20,816 nt of DNA from IMG/VR virus record IMGVR_UViG_2565956607_000008, positions 1 through 20,816 of that record; one strand, 5' to 3'. The position numbers were made by a program, and so were the translations under genes. Of the stretch, positions 1,248 to 16,482 are shown one piece after another (within the stretch, counting starts at the first letter, position 1; every line of letters starts with the position of its first letter). The notes under the pieces were generated by a model. The model saw nothing but the letters and a program-made list of their open reading frames with translations. It searched no databases and was not told the DNA's origin. Origin of the DNA: a virus. Lineage: Duplodnaviria; Heunggongvirae; Uroviricota; Caudoviricetes.

Positions 1248-2003
1248 TTATTTTGGACGCTTTTTGGTTGCTTTTTTCTTAAATTTGGGGGCGTACTTAT
1301 CCAAAGCGTTCGTTAGCAATCTCCGAAATGTATCTGGGTGGGTATCGCTGTCTTCATCGTTCCCGAATATTATGTTGTTTTCTATTACTTGGGCACTAAC
1401 CCTATTGATACTAAGGTTTCCTCCACTATGGAAATCTTTGCTTGATTCAAATAAGGCAATCGCCATTCCGGCGATCATCTTTAAAGCCGTATCTTTTCCT
1501 CTCCAGTTTTGTTCTCTTTCTACTTTTTTTGACAGTGCTCCAATTTCTGGTTCGTTATCTGGAACATTCATATCCAGTTCTGGGAAGAAGTTCACAACCT
1601 CGGAGCGCTTGAAATAAAACGAATCGTAAGACCCATACCAATCATCCTCATCATCGTGATATAAAAAGTCTTCCCCTTTCCTAACGTTGAAAGTCCCTTC
1701 TTCCCCCGGTATCGGGCTCTCCCTGTATTCATGCCCCATAGCCAGAAGACCTAAAAACTCCACACACTGCTTTTCAAAGTCGTCATTAGTTGTAAAACCT
1801 GATACCCAATCGAACTGATAAAAGCCCAGCCCCCCTAAAGTATCTGGTTTAGCTTTGCTCAATCTGTAGTTACTTAAGATAGCGGCAGCGATCATTCTTT
1901 CATTTTCATTGTTTAGTCTTGCCAGTTCGCTGATCAGATTACCAAACCAGATTTTATCTTCTGACTCGTTATAAAACGCATCTAGTCCTGTCATCTTAGT
2001 CAC
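1248..2003 (-). CDS. Hypothetical cargo protein of unknown function (251 aa), translationally coupled to the integrase
   Basis: Start overlaps the integrase stop by 8 nt (1996..2003); acidic central region; no motif recognised. The antisense ORF 1156..1617 is judged spurious. Confidence 0.55.
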   Translation of the reverse strand: MTKMTGLDAFYNESEDKIWFGNLISELARLNNENERMIAAAILSNYRLSKAKPDTLGGLGFYQFDWVSGFTTNDDFEKQCVEFLGLLAMGHEYRESPIPGEEGTFNVRKGEDFLYHDDEDDWYGSYDSFYFKRSEVVNFFPELDMNVPDNEPEIGALSKKVEREQNWRGKDTALKMIAGMAIALFESSKDFHSGGNLSINRVSAQVIENNIIFGNDEDSDTHPDTFRRLLTNALDKYAPKFKKKATKKRPK

Positions 2004-3282
2004 GGCGTGTTCTCCTTCCGAACTCGTAAGGGCTTATATGTATTTCTCGATTGGCGTCCAGATAATCTGCCCACCATTGAAGCATTAGTTTGCGCTCTTC
2101 TAAGTAATCAGCCTTGTGCTTGTAGGCTCTTTTAACGTCTTTATATTCTTTGTGGCTCATCTGGCGCTCTACTGCGTCCTCCTGCCACAAACCGGACTCC
2201 ATCAGGGAACTACAGGCTGTGGCACGGAATCCATGTCCAGTTACGTCCTCTTGCGTGTTATAGCCCATTAAGCGTAATGCCTTGTTTACCGTGTTTTCAC
2301 TCATCACGCCTTTGGTGTTTCTTTCATTCGGAAACACAACATCGTAGCTTCCGCTTAGTTCTCTCAACTGCTTTACAATAGAAACAGCCTGACGGCTAAG
2401 AAGCACGATATGTTCGTCTTTTCCCGTTTTTGTGCCACGGGTGGAAAACCTCACACCATCGATAGGCTCTCTTTTTTTAGGGATAATCCACTCAGCCCGA
2501 TCAAGGTCAAACTCTTTCCAACGGGCAAACCTTAACTCGCTTGAACGAACAAATGTCAACATGGTTAGCTCAATGGCAAGGCGGGTAAGAGGATTACCTT
2601 TAAAGCTGCCCAATCGAGTGAAAAAGTCTGGTAAATCTCTGGGATGTAGTGCGGCATGATGCTTAGTTTCATATTGCATTAACCGGACATCGAGATCATT
2701 CGTGATGATTTCTGTCTTAATGCCGCTCAGACGGGCGCTATGTATGATGTCCTTAACTCGTTGTTTAAGTCGGTTGGCTGTATCGTGTTTCCCGGCGTCA
2801 TCTACCTTCTTAAACAAAGGTAAAATTGTCATCGCCTCCAGTTTGCGAATATCCGAAGTGCCAATGTGAGGGAAAATATACATTTCAAGGCTTCTAAGTA
2901 CGCGTTTTCGTTGGTCTTCGTTCCACATCTGGTGGCTTTCAACCCATTGACGTCCTATTGTCTCAAAAGTGAATGCGCCTTTTTCTTCTGCTTTTGCTGC
3001 TCTTTGCTCTGCTTTGGGATCTATCCCCTTGACTAACAACTTTTTGGCGTTGTCTCGTTTTTCTCTGGCGTCTTGTAAGCTAATGGTTGGATATACACCA
3101 AAAGCAAGTCTGTCTTCTTTCTTATCTGATGGGCGGCGATACTTCATTCGCCAATACTTCGACCCGGTCTGGGATACTTCAAGATAAAGACCACCACCAT
3201 CAGACAATTTATAAGTTTTGTCTCGTGGCTTAGCTGCTTTGCACTGACGGTCTGTTAATTTGTTGAGGGTATTTCTGGACAT
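1996..3282 (-). CDS. int: Tyrosine site-specific integrase, P4/CP4-57 type (428 aa)
   Basis: N-terminal DUF4102-like arm-binding pattern (LTDRQCKAAKP...DGGGLYLEV...YWRMKYR), C-terminal catalytic region with HGFRAT and later Y; lies 165 bp from the 3' end of the tRNA on the same strand. Confidence 0.9.
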   Translation of the reverse strand: MSRNTLNKLTDRQCKAAKPRDKTYKLSDGGGLYLEVSQTGSKYWRMKYRRPSDKKEDRLAFGVYPTISLQDAREKRDNAKKLLVKGIDPKAEQRAAKAEEKGAFTFETIGRQWVESHQMWNEDQRKRVLRSLEMYIFPHIGTSDIRKLEAMTILPLFKKVDDAGKHDTANRLKQRVKDIIHSARLSGIKTEIITNDLDVRLMQYETKHHAALHPRDLPDFFTRLGSFKGNPLTRLAIELTMLTFVRSSELRFARWKEFDLDRAEWIIPKKREPIDGVRFSTRGTKTGKDEHIVLLSRQAVSIVKQLRELSGSYDVVFPNERNTKGVMSENTVNKALRLMGYNTQEDVTGHGFRATACSSLMESGLWQEDAVERQMSHKEYKDVKRAYKHKADYLEERKLMLQWWADYLDANREIHISPYEFGRRTRRD

Positions 3283-3446
3283 GTTGGGGGCACATATACA
3301 ATCGAACCAGCAATGCCCCTAATTATGCCCCATAGATTTACTTGATTTCAATAGACGGAAATGGACGTCATGAGAATAAAATCTCTTTATTTTTATATGT
3401 TTACATGGGATTTATAGACAATGGTAGACGTTGGTGTACAGCGGGA

Positions 3447-3521
3447 TGGTGTCCCCTGCAGGAATCGAACCTGCAATTAGCCCTTAGGAGGGGCTCGTTA
3501 TATCCATTTAACTAAGGGGAC
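3447..3521 (-). tRNA. argW: tRNA-Arg (anticodon CCU)
   Basis: Reverse complement folds by hand into a 75-nt cloverleaf: 7-bp acceptor stem GTCCCCT/AGGGGAC, D-arm GTTA/TAAC, anticodon stem AGCCC/GGGCT with loop CTCCTAA (anticodon CCT), T-arm GCAGG-TTCGATT-CCTGC, discriminator A, CCA end. Confidence 0.9.
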
Positions 3522-3716
3522 ATAGAACTCACTGATTTTTAAGCGTTCAGCTTGTGTTGCATGTTATCCTATCATTCCCCGTACCATCAAGCATTTCATT
3601 CCTTTTATTTCCTTTCCGTTCGCATCAATTCGCTTAGAAAATCACTTCGTTCACTTGCCATTGCGTACACATTGAGTACAGAATGCAGAATTTCAGTGTG
3701 TACAGGATACAGAGCC

Positions 3717-4892
3717 GTGGCCCTTAGTGATACCAAACTCCGTAGCATCAATGCTAAGCCATACAGCGGCGCAGCTGAGGTCACAGATGGTGACGGGCTA
3801 AGTGTACGCATAACTCCCACAGGCACGATCACATTCCAGTTTCGTTATCGCTGGAACGGTAAGCCCGTTCGTCTCTCCATTGGCCGCTATCCCGCTATGT
3901 CTCTCAAGGAGGCGCGCGTAGTCGTCGGTGAGATGCGCGAATTGTACCTCAAGGGACTAAACCCGAAAAATTATTTTGCCAAAGAAGATGGCGAGTTGAC
4001 TCTCAAAGAGTGCCTGGATCAGTGGTGGGGTAAGTATGTTGAAACGCTGAAGCCGAACACTCAGACGCTGTACAAGTCCGTTGTGTACAACACGATGTAC
4101 ACAGAATTCCCGGACGCTCCGGTAGTTAACATTCCTATTTCTGCATGGGTGCGTTTCTTTGATAAGCAGGAAAAGAAGAACAGCAAAAAGGCCAGAGTGC
4201 TTCTTCTACAGCTACGTTCTGTAATGAACTGGTGTATCAGCCGCCAGTTGATCCCATCGTGCGAGGTCCTGAAGCTTAGCGTTAAGAGCATTGGGAAAAA
4301 ACCTGATGTGGGTAGCCGAGTTCTCACATATACCGAGTTGGCAAAAATCTGGCTGGCGCTGGAGAATAACAAGATCGTGACTTCCAACAAGGTGCTTCAT
4401 CAGCTGCTTTTGCTTTGGGGAGCCAGGCTATCAGAGCTGCGTCTGGCTACCGCCAGTGAATTTAACATGGATGATCTTATCTGGACGACGCCAGGAGAGC
4501 ATTCCAAGATGGGTAACGTTATCCGTCGCCCGGTGTTTGGCCAGGTGAAACCTTTTGTTGAAAGGCTCCTCAATGCTGGAAATGATGTTCTGTTTCCCGG
4601 CCAGGAACTGGACAAGCCAATAGATCGCTCATCAGCTAATCTCTATATGAAAAAGTTAAGGAATAAAATTGATATCCCAGAATGGCGAACACATGACTTC
4701 AGGCGCTCGCTGGTGACAAATTTATCAGGTGAAGGGGTTATGCCCCACGTCACCGAAAAGATGTTGGGGCATGAGTTGGGAGGAGTGATGGCGGTGTATA
4801 ACAAGCACGATTGGCTGGTAGAACAGAAAGAAGCATATGAGCTATATGCAGATAAAATTTTTTGGCATGTCAAGAAAATAAATGACCAATAA
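3717..4892 (+). CDS. int: Tyrosine integrase of the lambdoid prophage (about 391 aa; GTG start proposed)
   Basis: The ORF track gives 3552..4892, but the conserved integrase N-terminus (ALSDTKLRSINAKP...DGDGLSVRI...FQFRYRWNGK) begins at an in-frame GTG at 3717 preceded by AGGA; C-terminal catalytic region has HDFRRS. Start choice is uncertain. Confidence 0.8.
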   Translation: MALSDTKLRSINAKPYSGAAEVTDGDGLSVRITPTGTITFQFRYRWNGKPVRLSIGRYPAMSLKEARVVVGEMRELYLKGLNPKNYFAKEDGELTLKECLDQWWGKYVETLKPNTQTLYKSVVYNTMYTEFPDAPVVNIPISAWVRFFDKQEKKNSKKARVLLLQLRSVMNWCISRQLIPSCEVLKLSVKSIGKKPDVGSRVLTYTELAKIWLALENNKIVTSNKVLHQLLLLWGARLSELRLATASEFNMDDLIWTTPGEHSKMGNVIRRPVFGQVKPFVERLLNAGNDVLFPGQELDKPIDRSSANLYMKKLRNKIDIPEWRTHDFRRSLVTNLSGEGVMPHVTEKMLGHELGGVMAVYNKHDWLVEQKEAYELYADKIFWHVKKINDQ

Positions 4893-4928
4893 CTTTAGAC
4901 GTAAGTATTGAATTCTCTGGGGTATGAA

Positions 4929-6245
4929 ATGGAAATGATATTTAATGAAGATAAAGATATTGAAAATGCATTGCAGTGGCTATCTAAAACTCTACCAGAA
5001 CCTAATTCATTGTTTGATAGAATGTGTCTGGCACAAGAGAGTTATATTAAAGAATCGGCCTTGAAGGTTAATATTGGAAAGGAATCGAAAATAGAATGGC
5101 ATGGATGTGATGTTGTCGCAGGTTTTTTCTCTCAAGCTAAATCCTATCTTGATAATCGACGTTCTTATGATATTTCAGCTGCATCTAAAATACTTCCTTG
5201 GGTGAAACAACTTGGTGTTAATGTTGAATATCTTAACAATATTCCAGGTGCGGTAGAACGTGCTAAAAGGATGTTGGAAAGTTATACCGTTTATCCGGAT
5301 AATGCATTGTTTGAATTAATATTAGCAGGAAATTATGCGGCTAAAGGTTTCGATGTTGAGTTTATACCTGAGCAGAAAGGAATAGCTAAAACTCCTGAGT
5401 TTAAATGTAGCTTTGATGGTAAGGCTCTTTTTGTTGTTGAATGCAAAAGATTAAAAAAGGGGCAATACGCCCAACAAGAGGAGTCGGCTCATTCAACAAG
5501 AGCTTCTTTTATTGAATCTCGTGTACATCTGAAAAGAATGAGTGTCTGGATGGATGTCACATATAAATGTGAAGTAAATGAAACACCGGACGATTATCTT
5601 TTAAAACATTTATGTAATTATTATGGGAAAGAATATTCCTGGAGTGATGACTACGGTAGTGGTTTTATAAAGCCTGCAAATTTGCGTAGGGTGAATGATG
5701 ATATTAAATTGAACGGTTCTCTATCATTACACACCAAATTGGCAAGACTAATTAAAACATCTCCACTCGATGGTGAGTTTTACAATGTTTATGCGTTTGG
5801 TCGACCAGATGAACGAGATCCACGTTTTTTCTCTAAAATTAATTATGCAACATTACTGACATGGCGAAATGTAAGCGAGGTGTCATTAGAAAACAGGTCC
5901 AGGCATATCACTAAACATTTAAAAGAAATTGAAGATCAAATATCAAATAATGGACTTGGTGTAGGGCATTTAGTTATTGATGCTGACGTACAAAAAGATG
6001 TCGCTGATAAACGGAGGGAAAAAAATATTGAGGCTGCACTTTCTTTCCGGATAAAGTCCAAGCTTGTTCGGTTAAATATTCATTATCTTGTTCCTCGTGT
6101 TGATGAAGATAATTCGTGGCTGGTGGACGAAACTCTTGAATTTTTCAGCGGTGACGAGTTGATTAGTCATTTGTTTCCTGAGGTGAAATTATTTTCAGGG
6201 ATGGAACTTTTTGAAAATGATTTGCCTGCATGGCATCAGAAATGA
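4929..6245 (+). CDS. AT-rich cargo protein with a PD-(D/E)xK nuclease-like motif (about 438 aa)
   Basis: ATG at 4929 preceded by GGGG (ORF track uses TTG at 4908). Residues GFDVEF...x...FVVECKRL give a D...ExK pattern. Immediately downstream of the integrase and followed by an intrinsic terminator. Confidence 0.6.
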   Translation: MEMIFNEDKDIENALQWLSKTLPEPNSLFDRMCLAQESYIKESALKVNIGKESKIEWHGCDVVAGFFSQAKSYLDNRRSYDISAASKILPWVKQLGVNVEYLNNIPGAVERAKRMLESYTVYPDNALFELILAGNYAAKGFDVEFIPEQKGIAKTPEFKCSFDGKALFVVECKRLKKGQYAQQEESAHSTRASFIESRVHLKRMSVWMDVTYKCEVNETPDDYLLKHLCNYYGKEYSWSDDYGSGFIKPANLRRVNDDIKLNGSLSLHTKLARLIKTSPLDGEFYNVYAFGRPDERDPRFFSKINYATLLTWRNVSEVSLENRSRHITKHLKEIEDQISNNGLGVGHLVIDADVQKDVADKRREKNIEAALSFRIKSKLVRLNIHYLVPRVDEDNSWLVDETLEFFSGDELISHLFPEVKLFSGMELFENDLPAWHQK

Positions 6246-6252
6246 TTTTTAT

Positions 6253-6280
6253 GCCACCCAGGATAGGGTGGCTTTTTATT
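6253..6280 (+). terminator. Intrinsic terminator after the int-cargo unit
   Basis: Hairpin GCCACCC-AGGATA-GGGTGGC followed by TTTTTATT, directly after the stop at 6243..6245. Confidence 0.6.
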
Positions 6281-6469
6281 CTAACTATGGCTACCACTAA
6301 TCCCACCATTTTCAATCCATTGAAACACAGCTTTTCTGCTATATCGCGTAGGATAAGTGAGAACTGGATTTGGGAAATTATGATCTTTACGTAAACGCCA
6401 TACTGCTGTTTTTTTCTTGCCCAGTAATTCGAATACTTCTTTCTCTTCCATAAAATCTGTAGAAGTCAT
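6281..6469 (-). CDS. xis: Excisionase-like HTH protein (about 62 aa)
   Basis: Internal ATG at 6467..6469 with GAGGTG ribosome-binding site; translation MTSTDFMEEKEVFELLGKKKTAVWRLRKDHNFPNPV... is an AlpA/Xis-type HTH; located beside int. ORF-track start at 6544 would overlap the next gene. Confidence 0.6.
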   Translation of the reverse strand: MTSTDFMEEKEVFELLGKKKTAVWRLRKDHNFPNPVLTYPTRYSRKAVFQWIENGGISGSHS

Positions 6470-6476
6470 AAGCACC

Positions 6477-6998
6477 TCATTCAAAATTACCGTTAAAAAT
6501 ACACGTTCCACACCCACCGCGAGCCCCTTCAGTACAAACATCACAGCGATCTACTTTTTTACGAGGTCGTTCTTTGATGTGCAGCCTTGGTTCCCCGTCT
6601 TTTGGTTCCGGCCATGAGCGCTGCTTGTTCACCGCCAGCTTTTCGATCATCGCCTGGGTAATCTGCTCATCTGCAATACCGGAACGGTGCTGAGCGTCCC
6701 ACAACAGGAACTGCATATCCGCCCACTCTGAAAGGTCGTCTGGTGCCGCTGCGGCCTCCAGCGCTTCTTTGCTGAGGTGCTTCAGCGGGCCAACCGGGCC
6801 GACATTGCCGAAAGTTGCCTGTGACCACTCGGCGTGCTCGTTGCGTACCTGTTCTCTGTCCATTGCGTCCAGTGCTATGCGGGCCAGCGCTTCAGCTTCT
6901 TCTGCTGGCAGCATTACGTTGCTTCCAGCTCCATAGGTTCCACGCCATGATTTAATTTTTTCCAGGCGCTCTCTCGCCAGTTTGGTTATATCAGTCAT
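6477..6998 (-). CDS. MazG-like nucleotide pyrophosphohydrolase domain protein (DUF550-like) with C-terminal Cys cluster (about 173 aa)
   Basis: Start ATG 6996..6998 overlaps the upstream stop (ATGACTGA); EWADMQFLLWDA resembles the MazG-type E-x-x-D helix; C-terminal CDVC...CGTC. The longer ORF-track N-terminus overlaps a convincing neighbouring gene. Confidence 0.55.
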   Translation of the reverse strand: MTDITKLARERLEKIKSWRGTYGAGSNVMLPAEEAEALARIALDAMDREQVRNEHAEWSQATFGNVGPVGPLKHLSKEALEAAAAPDDLSEWADMQFLLWDAQHRSGIADEQITQAMIEKLAVNKQRSWPEPKDGEPRLHIKERPRKKVDRCDVCTEGARGGCGTCIFNGNFE

Positions 6999-7191
6999 CG
7001 GAGTTATCCTCGCAGCAGTAGTGAGCGCCGTCCGGGTCAGTACTTTTGAAACCGCAGATATCACACTCAATTTCGTCATGGGCTTCTTCATCGCATTCGT
7101 GACTTTCCGGATCGTCGGCTTTGTAATAACCGCCGCACAAATTGCAGCGGACTTCTGCCACATCGTCATAGTTAGTAGTCCCGGTTATCAT
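6991..7191 (-). CDS. Small highly acidic cysteine-rich protein (66 aa), zinc-ribbon-like
   Basis: Translation rich in D/E with CxxC...C...CxxC...CC; ATGA overlap with the upstream gene at 7188..7191. Confidence 0.55.
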   Translation of the reverse strand: MITGTTNYDDVAEVRCNLCGGYYKADDPESHECDEEAHDEIECDICGFKSTDPDGAHYCCEDNSDD

Positions 7192-7427
7192 TTGTCAGCC
7201 CCCTCATGTAGCTGCTCTGCGATGCACGAAAAAAAAGACTCCCGCGTATGACTTTTAAGAGCTGATGCAAACGCCGCGTTAAGAACGGCAGCATCACAGC
7301 CGTCATCGATATAGAGTGCGATTTTTTTCTCCAGGCGCGCTTTGGCTTCCTGCAGCTGCATACCCCGGCAGGCGCGCGGGATATATTCCGCAATCTGTGA
7401 AATAGCCTTTTCGTTCTGTTTAAACAT
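7188..7427 (-). CDS. Hypothetical early-operon protein (79 aa)
   Basis: ATG 7425..7427 with GAGGTGA ribosome-binding site; overlaps neighbouring genes at both ends. Confidence 0.5.
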   Translation of the reverse strand: MFKQNEKAISQIAEYIPRACRGMQLQEAKARLEKKIALYIDDGCDAAVLNAAFASALKSHTRESFFSCIAEQLHEGADK

Positions 7428-7623
7428 GCTTCACCTCGATAGGCTTGATGGTGTCGAGCAGCAGTCGGCGGCGCGTATTTTCTGCAAAGTGACGGCGCCC
7501 GGTTTCTTTGTGGTAAAACTCGTTTTTGCCGACGACCCACATCCGCTCTGTCTGGTGCAGTTTTTTTACCTTCGGACCGTCTTTGGTGATAACGGTGCCG
7601 GTATGGGTTTTTACGATTGTCAT
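7420..7623 (-). CDS. Hypothetical early-operon protein (about 67 aa)
   Basis: Internal ATG 7621..7623 preceded by GGGGAGG; ATGA overlap with the stop of the ParB-like gene. Confidence 0.5.
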   Translation of the reverse strand: MTIVKTHTGTVITKDGPKVKKLHQTERMWVVGKNEFYHKETGRRHFAENTRRRLLLDTIKPIEVKHV

Positions 7624-8405
7624 ACAGCCTCCCCAAGCACCCAACGGAGTGCGCTCGCATACTCACCCTCGGCTGATTCCAGGGCTTTTGTGATTTCTTT
7701 GCGGGTTTTCAGGCGCGGCTTTGCCTCGCCGAGGATCTGACGCTGACGCCGGGCTTTTTCATGGCCGGTTGTGCCAGCAGTTGCCGCTTCGATTTCAGAT
7801 ACCTTCTCCCGCTGCTCTTCAGGTTTAAGCGATGCCAGCTGACGCGCCTGGGTAACAGTGACCGTTCCGGACTCCACTGCATCGCGAACAGCCTGGGTGG
7901 CATCCAGCAGTGACAGCGTTGCGCGTACGGTCTGGACACTCACGCCAAACATCAGCGCTAAATCGTCCTCGTCGTGCCCGCGCTCCAGCGCATCAGCCAT
8001 TTTCTTTGCTCGGCCCAGTGGCGTATCTGCTTGGCGGATTTCGTTAGCACTTACCATCGCCTGCGCCATGCGAACGGCGGAGCCACGTTTAGCGACTGCC
8101 GGAACCAGTAACGGTTCTTTACCCTCTTTCAACAGTCGCTTGTTGGCTTCCAGTGTATGGCGCACACGCTGGCGACCATCGACTACACAAGACAGCCCTG
8201 TTTCCGGGTCTTTCCAGACGATAATCGGCTCAAGAACGCCCTGATCCATGATGTTCAGCACCATTGCCTCGCTGATAGGCAGGTGGATACGCTCATCGTA
8301 AAGCGGGTGCGTTTTGTCCGTAACCAAGTGCAGGTTTTCAGGTTCGAACGTTAAAACATTCGTTTTGCCGCTGGCGCCGTATACCACCTTTGAGTCTTTA
8401 GCCAT
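7620..8405 (-). CDS. ParB-like nuclease domain protein (261 aa)
   Basis: VVDGRQRVRHTLEA resembles the ParB/sulfiredoxin-fold arginine motif; common in lambdoid early regions. Confidence 0.65.
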   Translation of the reverse strand: MAKDSKVVYGASGKTNVLTFEPENLHLVTDKTHPLYDERIHLPISEAMVLNIMDQGVLEPIIVWKDPETGLSCVVDGRQRVRHTLEANKRLLKEGKEPLLVPAVAKRGSAVRMAQAMVSANEIRQADTPLGRAKKMADALERGHDEDDLALMFGVSVQTVRATLSLLDATQAVRDAVESGTVTVTQARQLASLKPEEQREKVSEIEAATAGTTGHEKARRQRQILGEAKPRLKTRKEITKALESAEGEYASALRWVLGEAV

Positions 8406-8704
8406 CAGAGAGCCTCTACGTTACGGAAGCTGGTGGGGCAAATTGCTTTCAAATCGCGCATTGCTTCGAGGACATGCAGATTTGTGCGCTTCTTGGTGTG
8501 TCGCTCGGTCAGACGATCACACTCTTTCGCCCAGGATTTGACCTCTGCGAGAAGGGCGTCACGTTCGGTTCGCGTCTGGCGCAGAGCTACATTCGAAACA
8601 TCGAGGACGGTAGCCAGTTCCCTGATGATTGCTGCCTGTGCTGGTGGCATAGTTTGGGCTATTTCGTACGCCTGTTTAATAAGTTGATTTGCTGTCTTAG
8701 CCAT
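8405..8704 (-). CDS. Hypothetical protein, first gene of the early-left operon (about 99 aa)
   Basis: Internal ATG 8702..8704 with GGAGAA ribosome-binding site (MAKTANQLIKQAYE...); ATGA overlap with the ParB-like gene start. Confidence 0.5.
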   Translation of the reverse strand: MAKTANQLIKQAYEIAQTMPPAQAAIIRELATVLDVSNVALRQTRTERDALLAEVKSWAKECDRLTERHTKKRTNLHVLEAMRDLKAICPTSFRNVEAL

Positions 8705-9007
8705 CTTTTGTTCTCCATCTGACGCGCTGCAACGCGTAAATTTAGGGTGCAGCAACCCAACCCATGAGAGTGGGTGAATAGCTGGTTAAAATTTCTTGCT
8801 GATGGGGAGCCGCCACTGCAATGGCGGCACGTTAGTTCTCCACACAACGGAAAGAGCACTGAAGCACTGGAAACTCACTTGACTAACACAGTGCTTTTTC
8901 CTGTTGTGTGCCGGGCTTCCACCGGCTCCCATCTGTTTTTAAAGCCACTCAGATATCGTCTGGGCTGCGTCGTCTCCGTGCATCACACGTTTTCGCGACC
9001 GCTGAAA

Positions 9008-9092: not shown

Positions 9093-9737
9093 TTAGCGGC
9101 GCATCTGGCGGCGGTGTTCGACAACGACACCGATGATGGAAATTTTTTCAACAGCAGAGTTTAAAGCAGCAAAATCAGGGTTTAACGGGACCAATTCGAA
9201 AACCTCTTCACCATTTTCGTTGACACCCCTTGCACGGTATTTTTTAAAAGTGGCGTATTCACTACCGTTTTTGGCTACAACATAGTCCCCAGGACCTGGA
9301 CACAAGTCAGGATCCACAATGATAGTGTCTCCCTCTTTGAACTCTGGCTCCATAGATTTTCCACGTACCTTAAGAGCGAAGGTACCAAACGAATGAGCGC
9401 CGTTTGTTAAAATGTAATCCACGGCACCCTCTAAATTACGAGCATCACTTTCAGATGTCCAAGTTCCTGCTTGAACCCAACTTATGATAGGGATCTGCAT
9501 AGCGCCTAAGTTGCCAGGCGCTACATTGGAGAGTTCCTCTTTACCGGTGAGGAGAAAGTCCTCAGAAACACCAAAATACCGAGCTAATTTTGTCAGCGAG
9601 ACTCCTCCGGGTATGTTTTGGTCTTTCTCCCAGTATCCAATGGTGACATCTGTCACTCCAACAACTTTACCCAGTTGCTTCTGGGTAAGCTTACGATCCT
9701 TTCTTAATGATTTTAAACGACTTCCAAATGTGCTCAC
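9093..9737 (-). CDS. cI: CI-like prophage repressor (HTH_XRE N-terminus, S24 LexA-like peptidase C-terminus; 214 aa)
   Basis: N-terminal MSTFGSRLKSLRKDRKLTQKQLGKVVGV... HTH; C-terminal ...KVRGKSMEPEFKEGDTIIVDPD... Ser-Lys dyad region typical of autocleaving repressors; GTG start; divergent from cro. Confidence 0.85.
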   Translation of the reverse strand: MSTFGSRLKSLRKDRKLTQKQLGKVVGVTDVTIGYWEKDQNIPGGVSLTKLARYFGVSEDFLLTGKEELSNVAPGNLGAMQIPIISWVQAGTWTSESDARNLEGAVDYILTNGAHSFGTFALKVRGKSMEPEFKEGDTIIVDPDLCPGPGDYVVAKNGSEYATFKKYRARGVNENGEEVFELVPLNPDFAALNSAVEKISIIGVVVEHRRQMRR

Positions 9738-9831: not shown

Positions 9832-10041
9832 ATGACAACAACAGAGTTAGAAACGTTCTTCGGAACCCCCAACAAGGCAGCAGACTTCTTCGGTGTTTCT
9901 CCTGAGGCTTTTTATCAATGGCGAAAACGACCGGGCAGTTTGATCCCAAAAGGTCGTGCTGCAGAAGCTGCATATCGTACTAATGGGCAGCTTGTTTTTC
10001 GACCTGAACTTTACCAAAAGGCTACAGATTCAGCTGCTTGA
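9832..10041 (+). CDS. cro: Cro-like small DNA-binding regulator (69 aa)
   Basis: ATG preceded by AGGAGG at 9821..9826; divergent from cI across the operator region; small basic HTH-like protein. Confidence 0.7.
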   Translation: MTTTELETFFGTPNKAADFFGVSPEAFYQWRKRPGSLIPKGRAAEAAYRTNGQLVFRPELYQKATDSAA

Positions 10042-10568: not shown

Positions 10569-11036
10569 ATGGTAGAACAAAAGCAAAGTTTGAAAGATGT
10601 AGTCAAGGCTATGTGTAAGTCCATACATGGTGGGCGTGAGGCTATGGCTGGCGCGCTAGGCATGACCTTAACGCAGTTCAATAACAACCTTTATGAGAAA
10701 AATGGTTGTCGTTTCTTCGAAGTCAGCGAACTGGAAGCGATGGAGGACATTTCCAACACGTCGTTACTGGCTGACTACTTCGCTCGCCGTCGTGGTGCTC
10801 TGCTGGTGGATGTTCCGCACCTGGAAGAACTGGACCGCGTGGACTTATTTAGCCGGGCAATGCGTACCTCTGCCGCCAGGGGGCAGGTTGATCAGATTAT
10901 CGAACAGGCGCTTGAAGATGGCGTTATTGAAAGGCACGAGGCCGAAGAAATCATGGTGCATCACCGCCGTCACCTGGCAGCTCGTGAAGAAGAGATTGCC
11001 GCAATCATCACGCTTTTTTCACGCAAAAAGAAGTGA
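10569..11036 (+). CDS. CII-like phage regulatory protein (CP76/YdaT-like family; 155 aa)
   Basis: Position downstream of cro; N-terminal pattern (LKDVVKAMCKSIHGGREAMAGALGMTLTQFNN) recalled as the phage CP76-type CII family. Recollection, not a search. Confidence 0.6.
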   Translation: MVEQKQSLKDVVKAMCKSIHGGREAMAGALGMTLTQFNNNLYEKNGCRFFEVSELEAMEDISNTSLLADYFARRRGALLVDVPHLEELDRVDLFSRAMRTSAARGQVDQIIEQALEDGVIERHEAEEIMVHHRRHLAAREEEIAAIITLFSRKKK

Positions 11037-11273
11037 CGCCAGCGAGTTGCAGCTCCTGGCGTCGTGGCGTGTCGTTATCAGTGGAGATTACTAACGCATG
11101 AACAGTTTATCAACACAGTACCGCAGGTCGCAACTTGTAGCGCGTCCGGTTCCTGGTGGATCAGGGCCGGTGCAGTTCGTGTATGGGGTAAGAGTACCAG
11201 GCGGGTTCGAGCCTGTCTGCTACCAGTTTGCTCAGTGGGTGGTAGGGGACTTTAACGGCCAGGCGGAGAAAGT

Positions 11274-11453
11274 ATGCGAGAACTTAACCGATGGTTCAGA
11301 GATCACTACGGTGTCCCGGTCAGGGTCATACGCTGGGAGCCCCAAACACAGCGCGTTATATACCTGCGTGAAGGGTACGAGCATGAATGCTTTAGCCCCC
11401 TCGAGCAATTCAGACGTAAATTCAGAGAAATAAAGGACGATCATGAGCACTAA
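11274..11453 (+). CDS. Small basic protein (59 aa), below the ORF-track size cut-off
   Basis: ATG 11274 preceded by GGAG; translation MRELNRWFRDHYGVPVRVIRWEPQTQRVIYLREGYEHECFSPLEQFRRKFREIKDDHEH; its stop overlaps the start of the replication gene. The alternative ORF 11098..11433 looks low-complexity. Confidence 0.35.
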   Translation: MRELNRWFRDHYGVPVRVIRWEPQTQRVIYLREGYEHECFSPLEQFRRKFREIKDDHEH

Positions 11454-12396
11454 ATTAACAGGATACGTCTGGGACGCTTGTGCATCTTCGGGGATGAAGC
11501 TATCCAGCGTGGCAATCATGGCGCGCCTGGCTGACTTCAGCAACGATGAGGGTGTTTGCTGGCCTTCTATTGCGACCATATCCCGTCAGATTGGCGCTGG
11601 TGAAAGTACTGTCAGAACGGCGATAGCTGCACTTGAGAAAGAGGGGTGGCTCACTCGTACGCAGCGCCGCAACGGCAACCGTAATGCATCGAACGTCTAC
11701 CAGCTCAACGTTTCCAAACTACAGAAAGCGGCATTTTCTCACCTGTCAGTTTCTGACACATCAAAATCTGACGCGTCAAAATCTGATGCGTCAAAAATTG
11801 ACCCCTCAAAATTTGATGCGTCGGAATCCATCAAAAAAACCGGTTTTGACCCGTCAGAATCTGGTGGGGATCCGTCAGTAAAATCAACTACTGATCCATC
11901 AGATATAAATCCTTCTTGTCCGGACGCTTCGCAACCGGACGAACAGGGCTCTGCTGATGAATTTCTGTCACGACATCCTGACGCGGTGGTGTACAGCGCT
12001 GCAAAGCGGCAGTGGGGCAGCCAGGACGATTTAACCTGCGCTGAGTTCATTTGGGGAAAAATTATCAGCATGTACGAACTGGCGGCTGAAAGTGATGGTG
12101 AGGTAGTTCGCCCTAAAGAACCAAACTGGACCGCATGGGCGAATGAGGTTCGCCTGATGGTGATGCAGGACGGGAGAACCCATAAACAAATTTGCTCACT
12201 TTTCAAGCGCGCCAACAAAGATTCGTTCTGGTGTAAAAACGTGCTCAGCCCGTCGAAGCTGCGGGAAAAATGGGATGAGCTGTCGTTAAAACTATCTGCT
12301 CCACTCAATAGCTCCCGCCAGGAATCGTCCATTTCGCGAGCCAGCTTCGACGGGGTTGATTACTCATTGCCAGAAAACTCGGGGTTCCGCACATGA
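11443..12396 (+). CDS. Replication initiator, lambda O-like architecture (317 aa)
   Basis: N-terminal winged-helix-like region, then pentapeptide repeats (SKSDA-like) encoded by 15-bp DNA iterons, then C-terminal domain; stop overlaps the dam start (ATGA). Confidence 0.7.
   Translation: MSTKLTGYVWDACASSGMKLSSVAIMARLADFSNDEGVCWPSIATISRQIGAGESTVRTAIAALEKEGWLTRTQRRNGNRNASNVYQLNVSKLQKAAFSHLSVSDTSKSDASKSDASKIDPSKFDASESIKKTGFDPSESGGDPSVKSTTDPSDINPSCPDASQPDEQGSADEFLSRHPDAVVYSAAKRQWGSQDDLTCAEFIWGKIISMYELAAESDGEVVRPKEPNWTAWANEVRLMVMQDGRTHKQICSLFKRANKDSFWCKNVLSPSKLREKWDELSLKLSAPLNSSRQESSISRASFDGVDYSLPENSGFRT
11751..11835. repeat. Iteron array inside the replication gene (putative prophage origin)
   Basis: Four to five tandem 15-bp units TCAAAATCTGACGCG / TCAAAATCTGATGCG / TCAAAAATTGACCCC / TCAAAATTTGATGCG containing TGACGCGTCA-type palindromes, followed by an A-rich stretch. 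Confidence 0.55.
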
Positions 12397-13202
12397 GCAA
12401 GCCATTTCTGAAATGGGCTGGTGGAAAGTATACCCAGCTGGCTGACCTGTTCGTGCATATCCCGGCAGGGAAACGCCTGATAGATCCATTCGTTGGTGGT
12501 GGGTCAGTATTCCTGAACAGCGAAAAGCACGCAGATTACCTGCTGGCGGACGTTAACCCGGACCTGATTAATCTGTATCAGATGTTAGCGGTCGTGCCGG
12601 ATGAAGTGGAATTGAAGGCCCGCTGGATGTTCGAGCACATGCGGTCACCAGATGGTTATGAGCTGATCCGTTCCGAGTTCAACGCTCAGACGCTGGATGC
12701 TACTGAACGCGCAGCTGCATTCCTGTATCTCAACCGGCATTGCTTCAATGGCCTGATGCGCTACAACCAGGCTAACAAATTCAATGTGGGCTGGGGAGGC
12801 TACAAGGCTCCGTATTACCCGATGGATGAGATGAAAGCCTTCGCGGCTATGGCGCATAACTGCGTATTCATGACTGCTGATTACCGTCGGACAATCAGCC
12901 TGGCCGGGAAAGGGGATGTGGTTTACTGCGATCCGCCTTACGAACCGATGCCGGGAACAGCCGGATTCACTGCCTACGCCGCTGGTGGGTTTAACTGGGA
13001 GAACCAGGTAGACCTGGCGAAGCAATGTGTATCTGCCTTTCACCGCGGGGCTCGGGTAGTAATTTCTAACTCATCCGCACCGAAGGTTCTCGATCTGTAC
13101 CGGGAGCATGGTTTTAACCTGCAATTCATCAAAGCGCGCCGTTCGATCTCCTGCAAAAGCAGTACGCGGGAAGTCGCCAAAGATGTCGTGGCTATCCTGT
13201 GA
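12393..13202 (+). CDS. dam: DNA adenine methyltransferase, Dam family (N6-adenine, orphan; 269 aa)
   Basis: Motif FLKWAGGK near the N-terminus and catalytic DPPY (VYCDPPYEP); no adjacent restriction endonuclease gene. Confidence 0.9.
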   Translation: MSKPFLKWAGGKYTQLADLFVHIPAGKRLIDPFVGGGSVFLNSEKHADYLLADVNPDLINLYQMLAVVPDEVELKARWMFEHMRSPDGYELIRSEFNAQTLDATERAAAFLYLNRHCFNGLMRYNQANKFNVGWGGYKAPYYPMDEMKAFAAMAHNCVFMTADYRRTISLAGKGDVVYCDPPYEPMPGTAGFTAYAAGGFNWENQVDLAKQCVSAFHRGARVVISNSSAPKVLDLYREHGFNLQFIKARRSISCKSSTREVAKDVVAIL

Positions 13203-13226: not shown

Positions 13227-14207
13227 ATGAGAGCATTACTCACTCCTGAAATTGCCCCACGCATGGGCATTGTTCTGCTTCGCCCTGGCGCCGATCTGAT
13301 GCCGATGTTCAGGAGAGGGCGGGTACTGATTGAGCCTGCACCGGAAAAATACAGTGAATACGCAACCGGCGCCATTCCTCCCGCCACGCAGCCACTGGCA
13401 GAAGACCCGGTTTTGAAACCAGTATTCGAAAACCACGACGTCATTCTGCGTGCGGGGGGGATTAGCTCGCTGGAGGCCGAGCTGGAGCGTCGTTTTGAAT
13501 GCCAGTACCCGCACGGCTCATGGCACAGTGAAAATTTTACGCTGTTCCGGCATGAGCCTGGCAGCATCCGGCTTTGCTGGGCCTGCGACAACCTGGTGCG
13601 AGATCAGTACACAGAGACGCTGGCAGGCATTGCGCGTGAGAACCTGGTATCCTGGCTGATAAAGGTCATCCGCTCACAACTGGGGTTCAACGAAGACCAT
13701 CAACTGACGATCCCGGAGTTGTGCTGGTGGCTGGTTATAAACAATCTGGCGCACGTCATTCCTGAATCGCTGGCCCGGAAAGCCCTGCGATTGCCGGAAA
13801 TAAAGCATCAACCAGTGATGAAGGAGAGCGATATTGTGCCGGAGCCAGCGGCGAGCGAAGTGGTGCAGAAAAAGATTCTCGGTCTTCGCGTAGATCCTGA
13901 AACGCCGGAATCATTCATGCTGCGACCAAAGCGTCGCCGCTGGGTAAACGAGAGCTGGACGCGCTGGGTTAAGTCCCAGCAGTGTGTCTGCTGTAACAAA
14001 CAAGCAGATGATCCCCATCACCTGATAGGCCACGGACAAGGTGGAATGGGAACAAAAGCGCATGACCTGTTTGTGTTGCCGCTTTGCAGAGCGCATCACG
14101 ACGAGTTGCACGCTGACACCGTGGCATTTGAGGAGAAGCACGGCTCACAGCTGGAGCTGCTGTTTCGATTTCTGGATCGTTCGCTGGCAATTGGCGTGCT
14201 GGCTTAA
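13227..14207 (+). CDS. DUF968-like phage protein with C-terminal HNH/zinc-binding motif (326 aa)
   Basis: C-terminal CVCC...HHLIGHGQGGMGTKAHDLFVLPLCRAHHDELH pattern; position in the nin-like region between replication genes and Q. Confidence 0.65.
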   Translation: MRALLTPEIAPRMGIVLLRPGADLMPMFRRGRVLIEPAPEKYSEYATGAIPPATQPLAEDPVLKPVFENHDVILRAGGISSLEAELERRFECQYPHGSWHSENFTLFRHEPGSIRLCWACDNLVRDQYTETLAGIARENLVSWLIKVIRSQLGFNEDHQLTIPELCWWLVINNLAHVIPESLARKALRLPEIKHQPVMKESDIVPEPAASEVVQKKILGLRVDPETPESFMLRPKRRRWVNESWTRWVKSQQCVCCNKQADDPHHLIGHGQGGMGTKAHDLFVLPLCRAHHDELHADTVAFEEKHGSQLELLFRFLDRSLAIGVLA

Positions 14208-14225: not shown

Positions 14226-14570
14226 ATGCGTGATATGTATGAAATTTTAGACCGCTGGGGAGCATGGGCTGCAGCTGATAGTAGTGGTGTTGATTGGAAA
14301 CCCATTGCCGCAGGTTTTAAAGGTTTGTTACCTCATGGAAAGAAAACACGTCATCAATGCGATGATGATGAAGGAATCATGATTGACGGCTGTGTAGCGC
14401 GATTGCGGAAGTATAAGCCAGAAGAGTATGAGTTAATAATTGCTCATTTTGTTATTGGTTTCTCATTAAGAAGCATCGCGAAGAAACGGAAGTGTTCTGA
14501 TGGGACCATCAGGAAGGAATTGCAGACTGCAATGGGGTTTGTAGATGGTTGTTTAGAAATGGTTAACTGA
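14226..14570 (+). CDS. Late-gene antitermination protein Q (QuuD-like family; 114 aa)
   Basis: MRD...LDRWGAWAA...DWKPIAAGFKGL...RHQCDDDEG...DGCVARL...CSDGTIRKELQTAMGFVDGCL closely follows the pattern I recall for DLP12-type Q antiterminators. Confidence 0.8.
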   Translation: MRDMYEILDRWGAWAAADSSGVDWKPIAAGFKGLLPHGKKTRHQCDDDEGIMIDGCVARLRKYKPEEYELIIAHFVIGFSLRSIAKKRKCSDGTIRKELQTAMGFVDGCLEMVN

Positions 14571-14606: not shown

Positions 14607-15068
14607 TTAAAAGCTTTTAAGATATTTGCTTTTGATTTTTTCACTAACACTTTGTAATTCATGCAGTGTTGTGCCAACTTTATCAGCTTCATATTTTGTG
14701 TCATTGGTACATGCTTGGCGCAACTCTGCTATGAAACCTGTATCTTTTGTGCGGCTTGCATCAAGGAGTTGAATGCGTTCACATATAAACTCAACATGCC
14801 GTACGGACGATGTAAATATGAAATAAGATACTCTTTTGTCTTTTTCTTTATTCTCAAGTAGTTCCAGCATTTCACTATAAATGAAATCTAACTTGTAAAA
14901 CAACTCGTCTATCAATCTGTTTATTTCAAGTTTTTTGAGATTGTTTGCATTATTTTTCCGCGCCAAGTAGGCAGTAACTATCCATCCAATGATAGTTAAA
15001 CATATGCCCACAATAGCAATTATGGTAGCTGGTAGTGCCCATAAATTTGGAGTAACGGCTTGTTCCAT
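14607..15068 (-). CDS. Cassette gene C: single-pass membrane protein with helical cytoplasmic domain (153 aa)
   Basis: N-terminal hydrophobic helix (LWALPATIIAIVGICLTIIGWIVTAYLA) then charged helical region; 1-nt TAATG overlap with gene B; GAGGGATG ribosome-binding site; AT-rich. Confidence 0.7.
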   Translation of the reverse strand: MEQAVTPNLWALPATIIAIVGICLTIIGWIVTAYLARKNNANNLKKLEINRLIDELFYKLDFIYSEMLELLENKEKDKRVSYFIFTSSVRHVEFICERIQLLDASRTKDTGFIAELRQACTNDTKYEADKVGTTLHELQSVSEKIKSKYLKSF

Positions 15069-15385
15069 TATTTGGCATCCCTCAGAGCATCATTGATATA
15101 AGTAACAACCTCGGCAACTAATGCCGGATCCTTACTTTTAAGATTTTTCTTTAGGTTGTTAATCTTATCTTTGCTGATTCCCTTTCGCACCAGTCCACCA
15201 AAGGCCTCCTCCAAAAATGAGGATCCATACCCGAAAACCCCGTCAAAGTCAACGCAAATTTCATCATTTTCCAGTATTGCAGGAACTAAATAAAATTCGC
15301 GGAATTTTTCGCCACTATTCTCTCCAAGCGACTCGTAGCGAGGGCCAGGATATCTGGAGAATTCCTTGATATATAAAGTTTTCAT
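15068..15385 (-). CDS. Cassette gene B: STAS-like (DUF4325-like) small protein (105 aa)
   Basis: VDFDGVFGYGSSFLEEAFGGL parallels the anti-sigma-factor-antagonist motif around the phosphorylatable serine; strong AAGGAGAAG ribosome-binding site; ATGA overlap with gene A. Confidence 0.7.
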   Translation of the reverse strand: MKTLYIKEFSRYPGPRYESLGENSGEKFREFYLVPAILENDEICVDFDGVFGYGSSFLEEAFGGLVRKGISKDKINNLKKNLKSKDPALVAEVVTYINDALRDAK

Positions 15386-16482
15386 GCCGCTTCTCCTTCA
15401 GTTGGTAGTGGCACACTCCACTCAACAATTGTACCATTGATGGATTTATGAGCATCCCACATCAATTCGGGCCTTGCTTTCTTCCTTTTAGTATATCTGT
15501 AGTTCCCCTTGTTTGATATGATTCTGAGTTGGGCATGTGTAAAATTATCTATAATTGATTGTAAATCCGTGCCGCCTTTCCCTCTGTAACCAAGTTTTGT
15601 TCTTGTGCGTTTAACCTGTAATGATGCTTTTATATGCTCTGAATCTAATTCAATAGGCTTGCCTATAATTTCAATAAGTTTTGATAAAACTCTTTCTCCT
15701 TGAGTTAATTTCAAAGTTTTGGGAATTCCAACTCCTAAATCGCATATGGATAAAATCAATTTATTATTCATTATTGCTGCAAAACACCACCATTTATTTT
15801 TAATGTTGTTCTTTTGCTTGTCGTATAGATCATCTCTATATGCGTGCTCTACCGAGTTGGACATCGCCTCAATTAGAGGTCTGTATAAATTAGTGTAATC
15901 CGTTCCCATTTTCTCAGTTACTGCTTCTAATAGTTTCCCAGCAATTGTAGAATCAACCAGTTCACCTCTAATAACCTCCCAGCACTTAACAGATGGGTTC
16001 TCTTTCATCTCTCGACCTTTTACCCCAAATGCAGAATATATACCAATACGGTTAAGTACGCTATCAACTACATGATGTTCGCCTTTCTGTGTAGTTTTGA
16101 ATGGAGGGCGAGTTACAGTGTATCTTATATCTGGATAGTTACTTTTTAAACTCTCCAGTTTTGCTAGTAAATATAATCCTGCAGCGGCCGATATGTAAAT
16201 CGTATTTCTGAAGCAAACATATATTTTTTGAGTTTTAAACTGCTCTTGCTTGGCTTTTTTTTCAATATTTTCAATAAAACTTATTACGTTGTCATGGTAA
16301 TTAGAGTTATAGATATCAAGAATAGTAGGTGCAACTATTTTTTCAGAATTTGATTTTCGTATGTTACCATTACGTTTGTATCTTTTGTGTTCGGTTGACT
16401 TTTTGCTTGCGTTTGCACGGAGAAACCTTTTTCTCCTTATTCTTTTTAACACTGAAGTATAGAGCTGTTCTATTTTTTTCAT
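15382..16482 (-). CDS. Cassette gene A: protein with basic N-terminal region and C-terminal GHKL/HATPase-like ATP-binding domain (366 aa)
   Basis: AAGGAG ribosome-binding site 8 nt upstream; N-box-like EAMSNSVEHAY (E205..N209..H213), G1-like CDLGVGI (D248xGxG), G2-like GYRGKGGTDL (about 299..308); AT-rich. Confidence 0.7.
   Translation of the reverse strand: MKKIEQLYTSVLKRIRRKRFLRANASKKSTEHKRYKRNGNIRKSNSEKIVAPTILDIYNSNYHDNVISFIENIEKKAKQEQFKTQKIYVCFRNTIYISAAAGLYLLAKLESLKSNYPDIRYTVTRPPFKTTQKGEHHVVDSVLNRIGIYSAFGVKGREMKENPSVKCWEVIRGELVDSTIAGKLLEAVTEKMGTDYTNLYRPLIEAMSNSVEHAYRDDLYDKQKNNIKNKWWCFAAIMNNKLILSICDLGVGIPKTLKLTQGERVLSKLIEIIGKPIELDSEHIKASLQVKRTRTKLGYRGKGGTDLQSIIDNFTHAQLRIISNKGNYRYTKRKKARPELMWDAHKSINGTIVEWSVPLPTEGEAA

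Follow-up and report, generated by a model that had tools for sequence, protein, structure and literature searches.

We analyzed a 20,816-nt stretch of a Caudoviricetes genome (IMG/VR virus record IMGVR_UViG_2565956607_000008, positions 1 to 20,816; hereafter the window), a lambdoid prophage whose replication initiator gene contains an array of short repeats, or iterons. As judged from sequence comparisons, the region 11752-11947 inside this gene is probably both the replication origin of the prophage, built like the ori of phage lambda, and a cis-acting target of the initiator. The repeats are non-random, their conservation is seen in the DNA itself, and they are co-inherited with the N-terminal domain (N-domain) of the initiator; they lie at the position of the lambda ori, and the linker that they encode is predicted to be disordered. 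An earlier note made from the letters of this DNA had proposed a putative in-gene prophage origin here. The O-like character of the initiator, the lambda-like position, selection at the DNA level, the AT-rich block alongside and the shared inheritance of repeats and N-domain all support this proposal.

Repeat array and its conservation at the DNA level

Tandem Repeats Finder detected a 15-bp tandem array at 11752-11822 (4.7 copies, 78% matches), and a gap-free repeat search found seven in-register copies at 11739-11876 with spacings of 15, 15, 15, 15, 33 and 15, confirming the tandem 15-bp units described earlier. The five tandem units (Table 1) are followed by three further TGA-N4-TCA sites reaching 11901, and the general form of the iteron is TGA-N4-TCA followed by AAA. 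The pattern TGAYNNRTCA occurred six times in the 20.8-kb window, five of them within 11754-11901, compared to an expectation of 1.4; none of 100 shuffles reached six. The earlier note had placed a palindrome in every unit. A perfect palindrome, TGACGCGTCA, was present in one unit only (11769-11778), while the remaining units carried the TGA-N4-TCA variants TGACACATCA, TGATGCGTCA, TGACCCCTCA and TGATGCGTCG. Tandem Repeats Finder revealed no other repeat array in the early region of the window.

The units are in frame with the open reading frame (ORF) at 11443-12396 and encode the peptide SDTSK-SDASK-SDASK-IDPSK-FDASE. The repeats occupy codons 104-153, between the end of the N-domain near residue 97 and the start of the C-terminal domain (C-domain) at residue 179. 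Together with the match of the protein to PHROG 391, this agrees with the earlier description of a pentapeptide-repeat linker in a replication initiator. AlphaFold2 predicted the linker residues 102-163 to be disordered, with a predicted local distance difference test score (pLDDT) <50 and values of 32-41 in the repeat region. A pentapeptide-repeat beta-helix (PF00805; A(D/N)LXX) was ruled out by the absence of a Pfam match and by the predicted disorder. The A-rich stretch reported after the repeats was found in two forms, an A7 run at 11833-11839 and a 69% A+T segment at 11878-11912, the latter being better conserved than the former.

The array was compared across 80 loci, one genome per species across Enterobacterales, and five phage loci, with counts made over up to 86 loci; codon choice was analyzed in 306 repeat units from 73 loci. 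Serine at unit position 4 was encoded by TCA in 275 of the 306 units, compared to 16% of the serine codons elsewhere in the same genes, and the lysine codon of the unit was AAA in 218/218 cases, compared to 63% elsewhere. The third base of unit position 1 was T in 277/306 units, although the residue at this position varies (S, F, I, P). As a control, conserved N-domain residues of the same loci had a mean top-codon share of 0.55, and one conserved serine used all six codons. The synonymous codons of the N-domain are scrambled, and the loci have therefore diverged enough for the codon contrast to be meaningful.

Across the 86 loci, TGA-N4-TCA was approximately 45-fold denser in the 270 nt that follow the N-domain (14.7 per kb) than elsewhere (0.33 per kb). 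Neighbouring sites were spaced 15 nt apart in 166 of 255 pairs, and the other spacings were 15n or 15n+3, except for one pair at 40 nt. Repeats missing from homologues, the outcome that the earlier note had named as contrary evidence, were not what we observed: 84 of the 86 loci have at least two sites. An independent set of 86 distinct viral contexts from IMG/VR gave the same picture, with at least two upstream sites, mostly 15 nt apart, in 84/86, and at least 120 IMG/VR viral contigs contained a single copy of the core pattern located downstream of the tandem units. Proteins sharing at least 89% identity differed widely in copy number, from about 0 to 9 units. In the Klebsiella chromosomal variant P0005, the conserved iteron TTTGACCCGTCAGAATCTGG is read in another frame (..KKPVLTRQNLGDPSV..) for seven codons, after which the sequence returns to frame; this linker thus retains the DNA with an altered peptide, which suggests that the peptide is not the selected feature. 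By these comparisons, the repeats are conserved as DNA and not as protein. Three chromosomal copies from Klebsiella and Salmonella (P0009, P0008 and P0053) have lost nearly all tandem units and have kept GATCCGTCA and the AT-rich block.

The tandem units are followed by a spacer, a 36-bp core, an AT-rich segment and a GC-rich segment (Table 1). Across the loci the core has the general form TTTGACCCGTCAGAATCTGGnGGGGATCCGTCAGTA. Its last 12 bases, GATCCGTCAGTA, are identical in 65/85 loci, and within it the aspartate codon is GAT in 85/85 and the valine codon is GTA in 82/85 loci. Mean A+T content was 0.60-0.74 from +0 to +45 of the anchor (85 loci; gene mean, 0.48) and fell to 0.44 and 0.31 at +45 to +75, and the downstream A+T content in the 86 IMG/VR viral contexts was 0.70. 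No 30-40 bp duplex in the gene is less stable than the segment 11878-11912.

The core and the AT-rich segment each contain a GATC. The second one (GATCC[AG]TCA) is located exactly 24 nt past the first in 79/85 loci, and the GATC at +24 was also found in 84/86 IMG/VR viral contexts. In 33 of 81 loci, the gene after the initiator encodes an adenine methyltransferase. GATC was not enriched over the whole window (64 sites vs 74 expected), where the conserved pair alone stands out. The conserved pair and the frequent methyltransferase neighbour suggest, speculatively, a methylation-sensitive control of initiation, which would be an addition to an origin at this place and not an alternative to it.

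Initiator family, its exchangeable N-terminal module and related origins

A profile search matched residues 1-299 of the initiator to PHROG 391, "replication initiation O-like" (E 7e-116). Pfam placed HTH_36 (PF13730) at residues 23-70 above the cut-off (E 7e-11), and its other matches were weak ones to GntR, PaaX, RP-C and DnaD_N. The AlphaFold2 model of the N-domain contains helices at residues 3-16, 20-31, 43-50, 54-66 and 90-97 and strands at 70-73 and 85-88. The best Foldseek matches of this domain were winged helices of the MarR/ArsR type with weak scores (E ~7e-3), and sequence and fold searches of the Protein Data Bank (PDB) with the initiator gave only generic winged-helix matches and no sequence match to DnaT. 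BLASTP against lambda O aligned the C-domain alone and not the N-domain: residues 179-298 of the initiator and 179-280 of lambda O share 38% identity over 120 residues (E 6e-26).

The initiator gene is 99.2% identical in Klebsiella phage 1 LV-2017 and in a series of K. pneumoniae phages, and the homologues of SfIV and SfII are 72-78% identical to the initiator. SfIV p41, SfII and phiNP rep (PHROG 391) belong to the same protein family and show the same modular domain combinations. Records of related phages name these homologues inconsistently, as "replication protein O", "primosomal protein I", "GntR family" or "hypothetical". In Klebsiella phage ST101-KPC2phi6.3, an intact 322-amino-acid initiator ORF (2501-3469) is annotated as a short "replication protein O" gene and antisense hypothetical genes. 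The module is thus inconsistently annotated at present while being widespread in prophages of Klebsiella, E. coli, Shigella, Salmonella and other Enterobacterales.

Three repeat classes were observed at the same place, all of the form TGA-N4-TCA with a 15-bp period. The class TGAC.C.TCA encodes SDASK and occurs with the predicted recognition helix STVRTAI; TGAAC[GA]TTCA encodes SERSE and occurs with STVITAI; and TGACCCCTCA alternating with its reverse complement TGAGGGGTCA encodes IDPSN/TVEGS and occurs with TTVSAAI. TGAACGTTCA is the presumed target of the STVITAI-type helix. In hosts ranging from Klebsiella to Providencia and Yersinia, the array and the N-domain have been inherited as a pair. 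In 58/86 loci, the N-domain and the repeats were joined to a different C-domain, Phg_2220_C, which Pfam confirmed for phiNP; the assignment elsewhere was made on the basis of a sequence motif. Similarity between phages of the two C-domain types ends just past the GC-rich segment, and the N-domain and the repeat/AT-rich block therefore behave as one module. Combinations of HTH_36 O-like proteins with P, Phg_2220_C or DnaT_C modules have been noted by Brezellec et al. 2017 (PMC5509034). The O gene of Phi24B (2438-3214), a distant HTH_36 type, has a tandem repeat of its own directly after the winged-helix domain (2729-2792; period of 22-24 bp, 2.9 copies, 93% matches); its unit holds an inverted repeat, and a helicase-type P gene follows O.

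In-gene iteron origins are textbook knowledge for lambda. Like the array in the window, the lambda ori lies within the gene of its initiator, where it falls in the linker joining a DNA-binding N-domain to a C-domain, and in both cases repeated sites with dyad symmetry are followed by an AT-rich stretch. The lambda iterons are annotated at O codons ~117-145 and those of the window occupy codons 104-153, and the aligned C-domain stretch begins at residue 179 in both proteins. The lambda-like arrangement claimed in the earlier note is supported by in-gene repeats between domains, a homologous C-domain and an AT-rich segment after the repeats. Hybrid O proteins of lambda, phi80 and P22 indicate that the N-domain can be exchanged together with the ori, the two acting as a single module that sets specificity. 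The two systems differ in their N-domains, which is Phage_rep_O in lambda O and HTH_36 in the window initiator, and in their sites: lambda has four 18-bp sites with annotated starts 20-24 bp apart, whereas the window has 10-bp cores with a strict 15-bp (5-codon) period and a variable number of units. Compared to lambda, the conserved GATC pair is a feature of the window family, and the window initiator carries an extra DnaT-like tail.

Other in-gene origins include those of P22 gene 18, SPP1 gene 38 (oriL) and the rep genes of the lactococcal phages TP901-1 and Tuc2009. In these cases the repeats of the initiator are embedded in its own coding sequence, while the proteins and repeats are unrelated to those of the window. 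Iteron plasmids (pSC101 RepA, R6K pi and RK2 TrfA) share with the window a winged-helix initiator, phased repeats, an adjacent AT-rich element and the use of a host helicase. Their iterons, however, are ~17-22 bp long, are spaced by roughly two helical turns and are found outside the rep gene; each initiator contains two winged helices, and DnaA boxes are usual. The window differs in having a single winged-helix domain, an unrelated helical C-domain, 15-bp spacing and an in-gene array. DnaA boxes in the window were not above chance, and none was near the array. A small "plasmid" with a homologue (NZ_CP148542.1) was considered as evidence of autonomous replication and was rejected as uninformative, being a prophage-like fragment with a DnaC-like gene.

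Proposed mechanism and competing explanations

In the proposed mechanism, the initiator would be translated from an early rightward operon comprising cro, the cII-like gene, the DUF4222 ORF and the initiator gene. Its winged-helix N-domain would bind the phased TGA-N4-TCA iterons (the five tandem ones, the site in the 36-bp core and the later iteron-like sites) and form a multi-protein complex. This complex would strain and open the adjacent 35-bp AT-rich block with its two GATC, and the GC-rich segment would limit the opening. The lambda-O-like C-domain and the DnaT-like tail would then bring in the host helicase machinery, with no phage loader of the P or DnaC type, and the peptide encoded by the repeats would be a mere disordered tether between the two domains. 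A model with strictly palindromic iterons was rejected, since the central four bases of the sites are only partly symmetric, and compensatory symmetry is not claimed as strong evidence. The TGA and TCA half-sites alternate every 7-8 bp. Given the partial symmetry of the central bases, binding could involve dimers, either on each 10-bp core or across the A-rich spacers, monomers on direct repeats, or a continuous filament.

The main competing explanation is that the initiator binds these sites for autoregulation, copy control, handcuffing or exclusion of related phages, while the true origin is located elsewhere. Iterons in plasmids and lambda have such secondary roles, and both the DNA-level conservation and the matching of iterons to N-domains would fit any cis site bound by the initiator. 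Ectopic copies of the lambda ori reportedly inhibit phage growth (PMC4488673, PMC3349717), which also counts in favour of this explanation. However, a succession of iterons, AT-rich block and GC-rich segment, placed at the lambda-ori position next to a homologous C-domain, meets the needs of an origin rather than those of an operator. No second repeat array was found in the early region, and DnaA boxes were not in excess. We therefore consider a purely regulatory role unlikely. It is less probable still that the sites serve another factor, either a host regulator or Dam/SeqA acting on the GATC pair. The conservation of this pair and the methyltransferase gene that often follows the initiator would suit such a factor, but GATC accounts for two sites and not for the 15-bp TGA-N4-TCA array, and the iterons change with the recognition helix of the initiator and travel with its N-domain from Klebsiella to Providencia and Yersinia.

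The repeat might also be a low-complexity Ser/Asp/Lys linker that changes by replication slippage, its DNA having no function. The in-frame units, the disordered and hydrophilic linker and the variable copy number are as expected of slippage-prone linkers. This explanation is nevertheless highly improbable, because the same codons recur from genus to genus although synonymous sites in the rest of these genes are saturated, because the T at the third base of position 1 persists as the residue varies, because the DNA, not the peptide, survives in the frame-shifted variant, and because the repeat classes retain TGA-N4-TCA despite radical changes of the peptide from SDASK to SERSE to IDPSN/TVEGS. 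Least probable of all is conservation imposed by an overlapping gene in another frame or by a structured RNA. ORFs at 11633-11881 (+) and 11739-12332 (-) span the repeats, and the single-strand fold had a z-score of -6.3; but alternative frames on either strand contain stops in 72-86 of the 86 loci, Rfam gave only sub-threshold chance matches to plant microRNA models, and the strong fold is a trivial consequence of repeated palindromes. An internal promoter in the array was also rejected: one weak consensus match was found (11753-11782), and the number of matches was no higher than in shuffles.

Several points weigh against an origin at 11752-11947. Binding by the initiator and origin activity are both properties that we infer for the array from comparisons, and literature searches returned no description of iterons or an origin for the HTH_36/PHROG 391 family. 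Phage_rep_O (PF04492) was not among the Pfam matches of the initiator N-domain. The sites are imperfectly symmetric, with positions 4/7 complementary in 48% and positions 5/6 in 39% of sites, and with a 15-bp period adjacent sites face different sides of the DNA, whereas classic origin arrays repeat about every two helical turns. Few lineages, and therefore few independent events, underlie the link between iteron sequence and recognition helix. The AT-rich block is short, its signal is modest in absolute terms, and it reaches only the 97th-98th percentile of instability in the window, where intergenic regions are less stable. The unit-poor chromosomal copies (P0009, P0053) mean either that few sites suffice or that these prophages are defective. 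A P gene follows O in lambda and none follows the window initiator, and the scanned regions of the window contain no loader gene to account for helicase recruitment.

With these points taken into account, the array is very probably an origin of a kind already known, a well-supported new case that holds no great surprise. The origin reading provides a precise and testable map of iterons, 36-bp core, GATC pair and AT-rich block. It also suggests that an in-gene origin may be recognisable from its sequence alone, by fixed codons in a disordered linker with scrambled synonymous sites elsewhere in the gene.

C-terminal tail and gene neighbourhood

The C-terminus of the window initiator ends in ..VDYSLPENSGFRT (..LPENSGFRT), and the form common in the family is ..IPxGFRG. 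The tail of the SfIV homologue, SQIPAGFRG, matches SQIPPGFRG of E. coli DnaT in 8/9 residues (SfIV locus 3400-3439; dnaT locus 2479-3018). Between the initiator and E. coli DnaT, BLASTP and hhalign aligned the last 9-15 residues alone, and neither found homology in the initiator to the N-terminal oligomerisation domain or the C-terminal single-stranded DNA-binding domain of DnaT. Homology of the initiator C-domain to the DnaT C-domain was considered and not detected, as the profile comparison aligned only the tail. Because the alignment to DnaT covers the tail alone, the record name "primosomal protein I" is unsupported beyond a short motif. The tail persists where the C-domain before it has been exchanged.

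None of the 50 loci with an IPxGFRG-like tail, the window included, had a P-like or DnaC-like gene immediately downstream, compared to 8 of the 36 loci with other tails, although these counts ignore shared ancestry. Lambda P is located directly downstream in six relatives, and five of these six end in a W..PE.W..L tail. This tail, we presume, resembles the C-terminus of lambda O itself. In the window, no loader of the P type follows the initiator, the next genes being those for a Dam methylase, a DUF968/HNH protein and Q; most relatives likewise have no adjoining loader. Loader and helicase families were not found among the larger ORFs of the left arm of the window (1248-8755) or the two at 14607-16482. 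The route by which DnaT recruits DnaB-DnaC is given as unknown, and its tail is not discussed, in reviews and a 2026 cryo-EM paper (PMC13377028, PMC5778457). Tentatively, and with considerable doubt, the tail may serve as a transferable peptide for recruitment of the host primosome, so that one phage protein would bind the in-gene origin and load DnaB via DnaB-DnaC or PriA/PriB with no phage loader. If true, this would give a function to the last residues of DnaT. Lambdoid phages with an O-like initiator and a DnaT-like tail instead of a P-like loader represent a natural experiment on helicase recruitment.

The gene order around the initiator was read from Pfam and PHROG scans and is given with the other features in Table 1.

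Table 1. Positions of the repeat array, associated DNA elements, initiator domains and neighbouring genes in the window
Feature	Position	Strand	Basis or content
Five tandem 15-bp iterons	11752-11826		Codon-phased xxT GAY nnn TCA AAA
10-bp iteron cores	11754-11763, 11769-11778, 11784-11793, 11799-11808, 11814-11823
Spacer with A7 run (11833-11839)	11827-11844		Encodes S-I-K-K-T-G; AAA AAA/AAT codons moderately conserved
Conserved 36-bp core	11845-11880		TTTGACCCGTCAGAATCTGGTGGGGATCCGTCAGTA; iteron 6 at 11847-11856; iteron-like GGATCCGTCA at 11868-11877; GATC at 11869-11872
AT-rich segment, candidate unwinding element	11878-11912		69% A+T; iteron 8 TGATCCATCA at 11892-11901; second GATC at 11893-11896
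GC-rich segment, end of shared N-domain and putative ori module	11913-11947		Short inverted repeat 11911-11923 / 11935-11947
Replication initiator gene, 317 amino acids	11443-12396	+	ORF; PHROG 391 match
N-terminal winged-helix (HTH_36) domain, presumed iteron-binding part	11443-11733	+	Pfam and AlphaFold2 model
C-terminal domain homologous to lambda O C-domain	11977-12336	+	BLASTP; confidently helical in model
C-terminal tail resembling host DnaT C-terminus	12346-12393	+	FDGVDYSLPENSGFRT
cI-type repressor	9093-9737	-
Cro	9832-10041
CII-like	10569-11036
Small DUF4222 ORF, 59 amino acids	11274-11453	+	Pfam PF13973, E 8e-19; overlaps initiator start codon
Dam-type adenine methyltransferase gene, directly downstream of initiator	12393-13202	+	Pfam PF02086, E 1e-51
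DUF968/HNH protein	13227-14207
Antiterminator Q	14226-14570

The DUF4222 ORF adjoins the initiator gene in the annotation of plasmid and chromosome records. Other records instead call a 111-amino-acid ORF in a different frame at this place (PHROG 1170; ORF 11098-11433). At the left of the window, two divergent neighbouring genes resemble tyrosine integrases, at 1996-3282 (-) and 3552-4892 (+) (PHROG 1; E 4e-55 and 3e-68, respectively), and this pair may reflect two integrated elements or a junction. A gene for a ParB-like protein was found in the early-left region at 7620-8405 (-) (PHROG 1033, E 7e-74).

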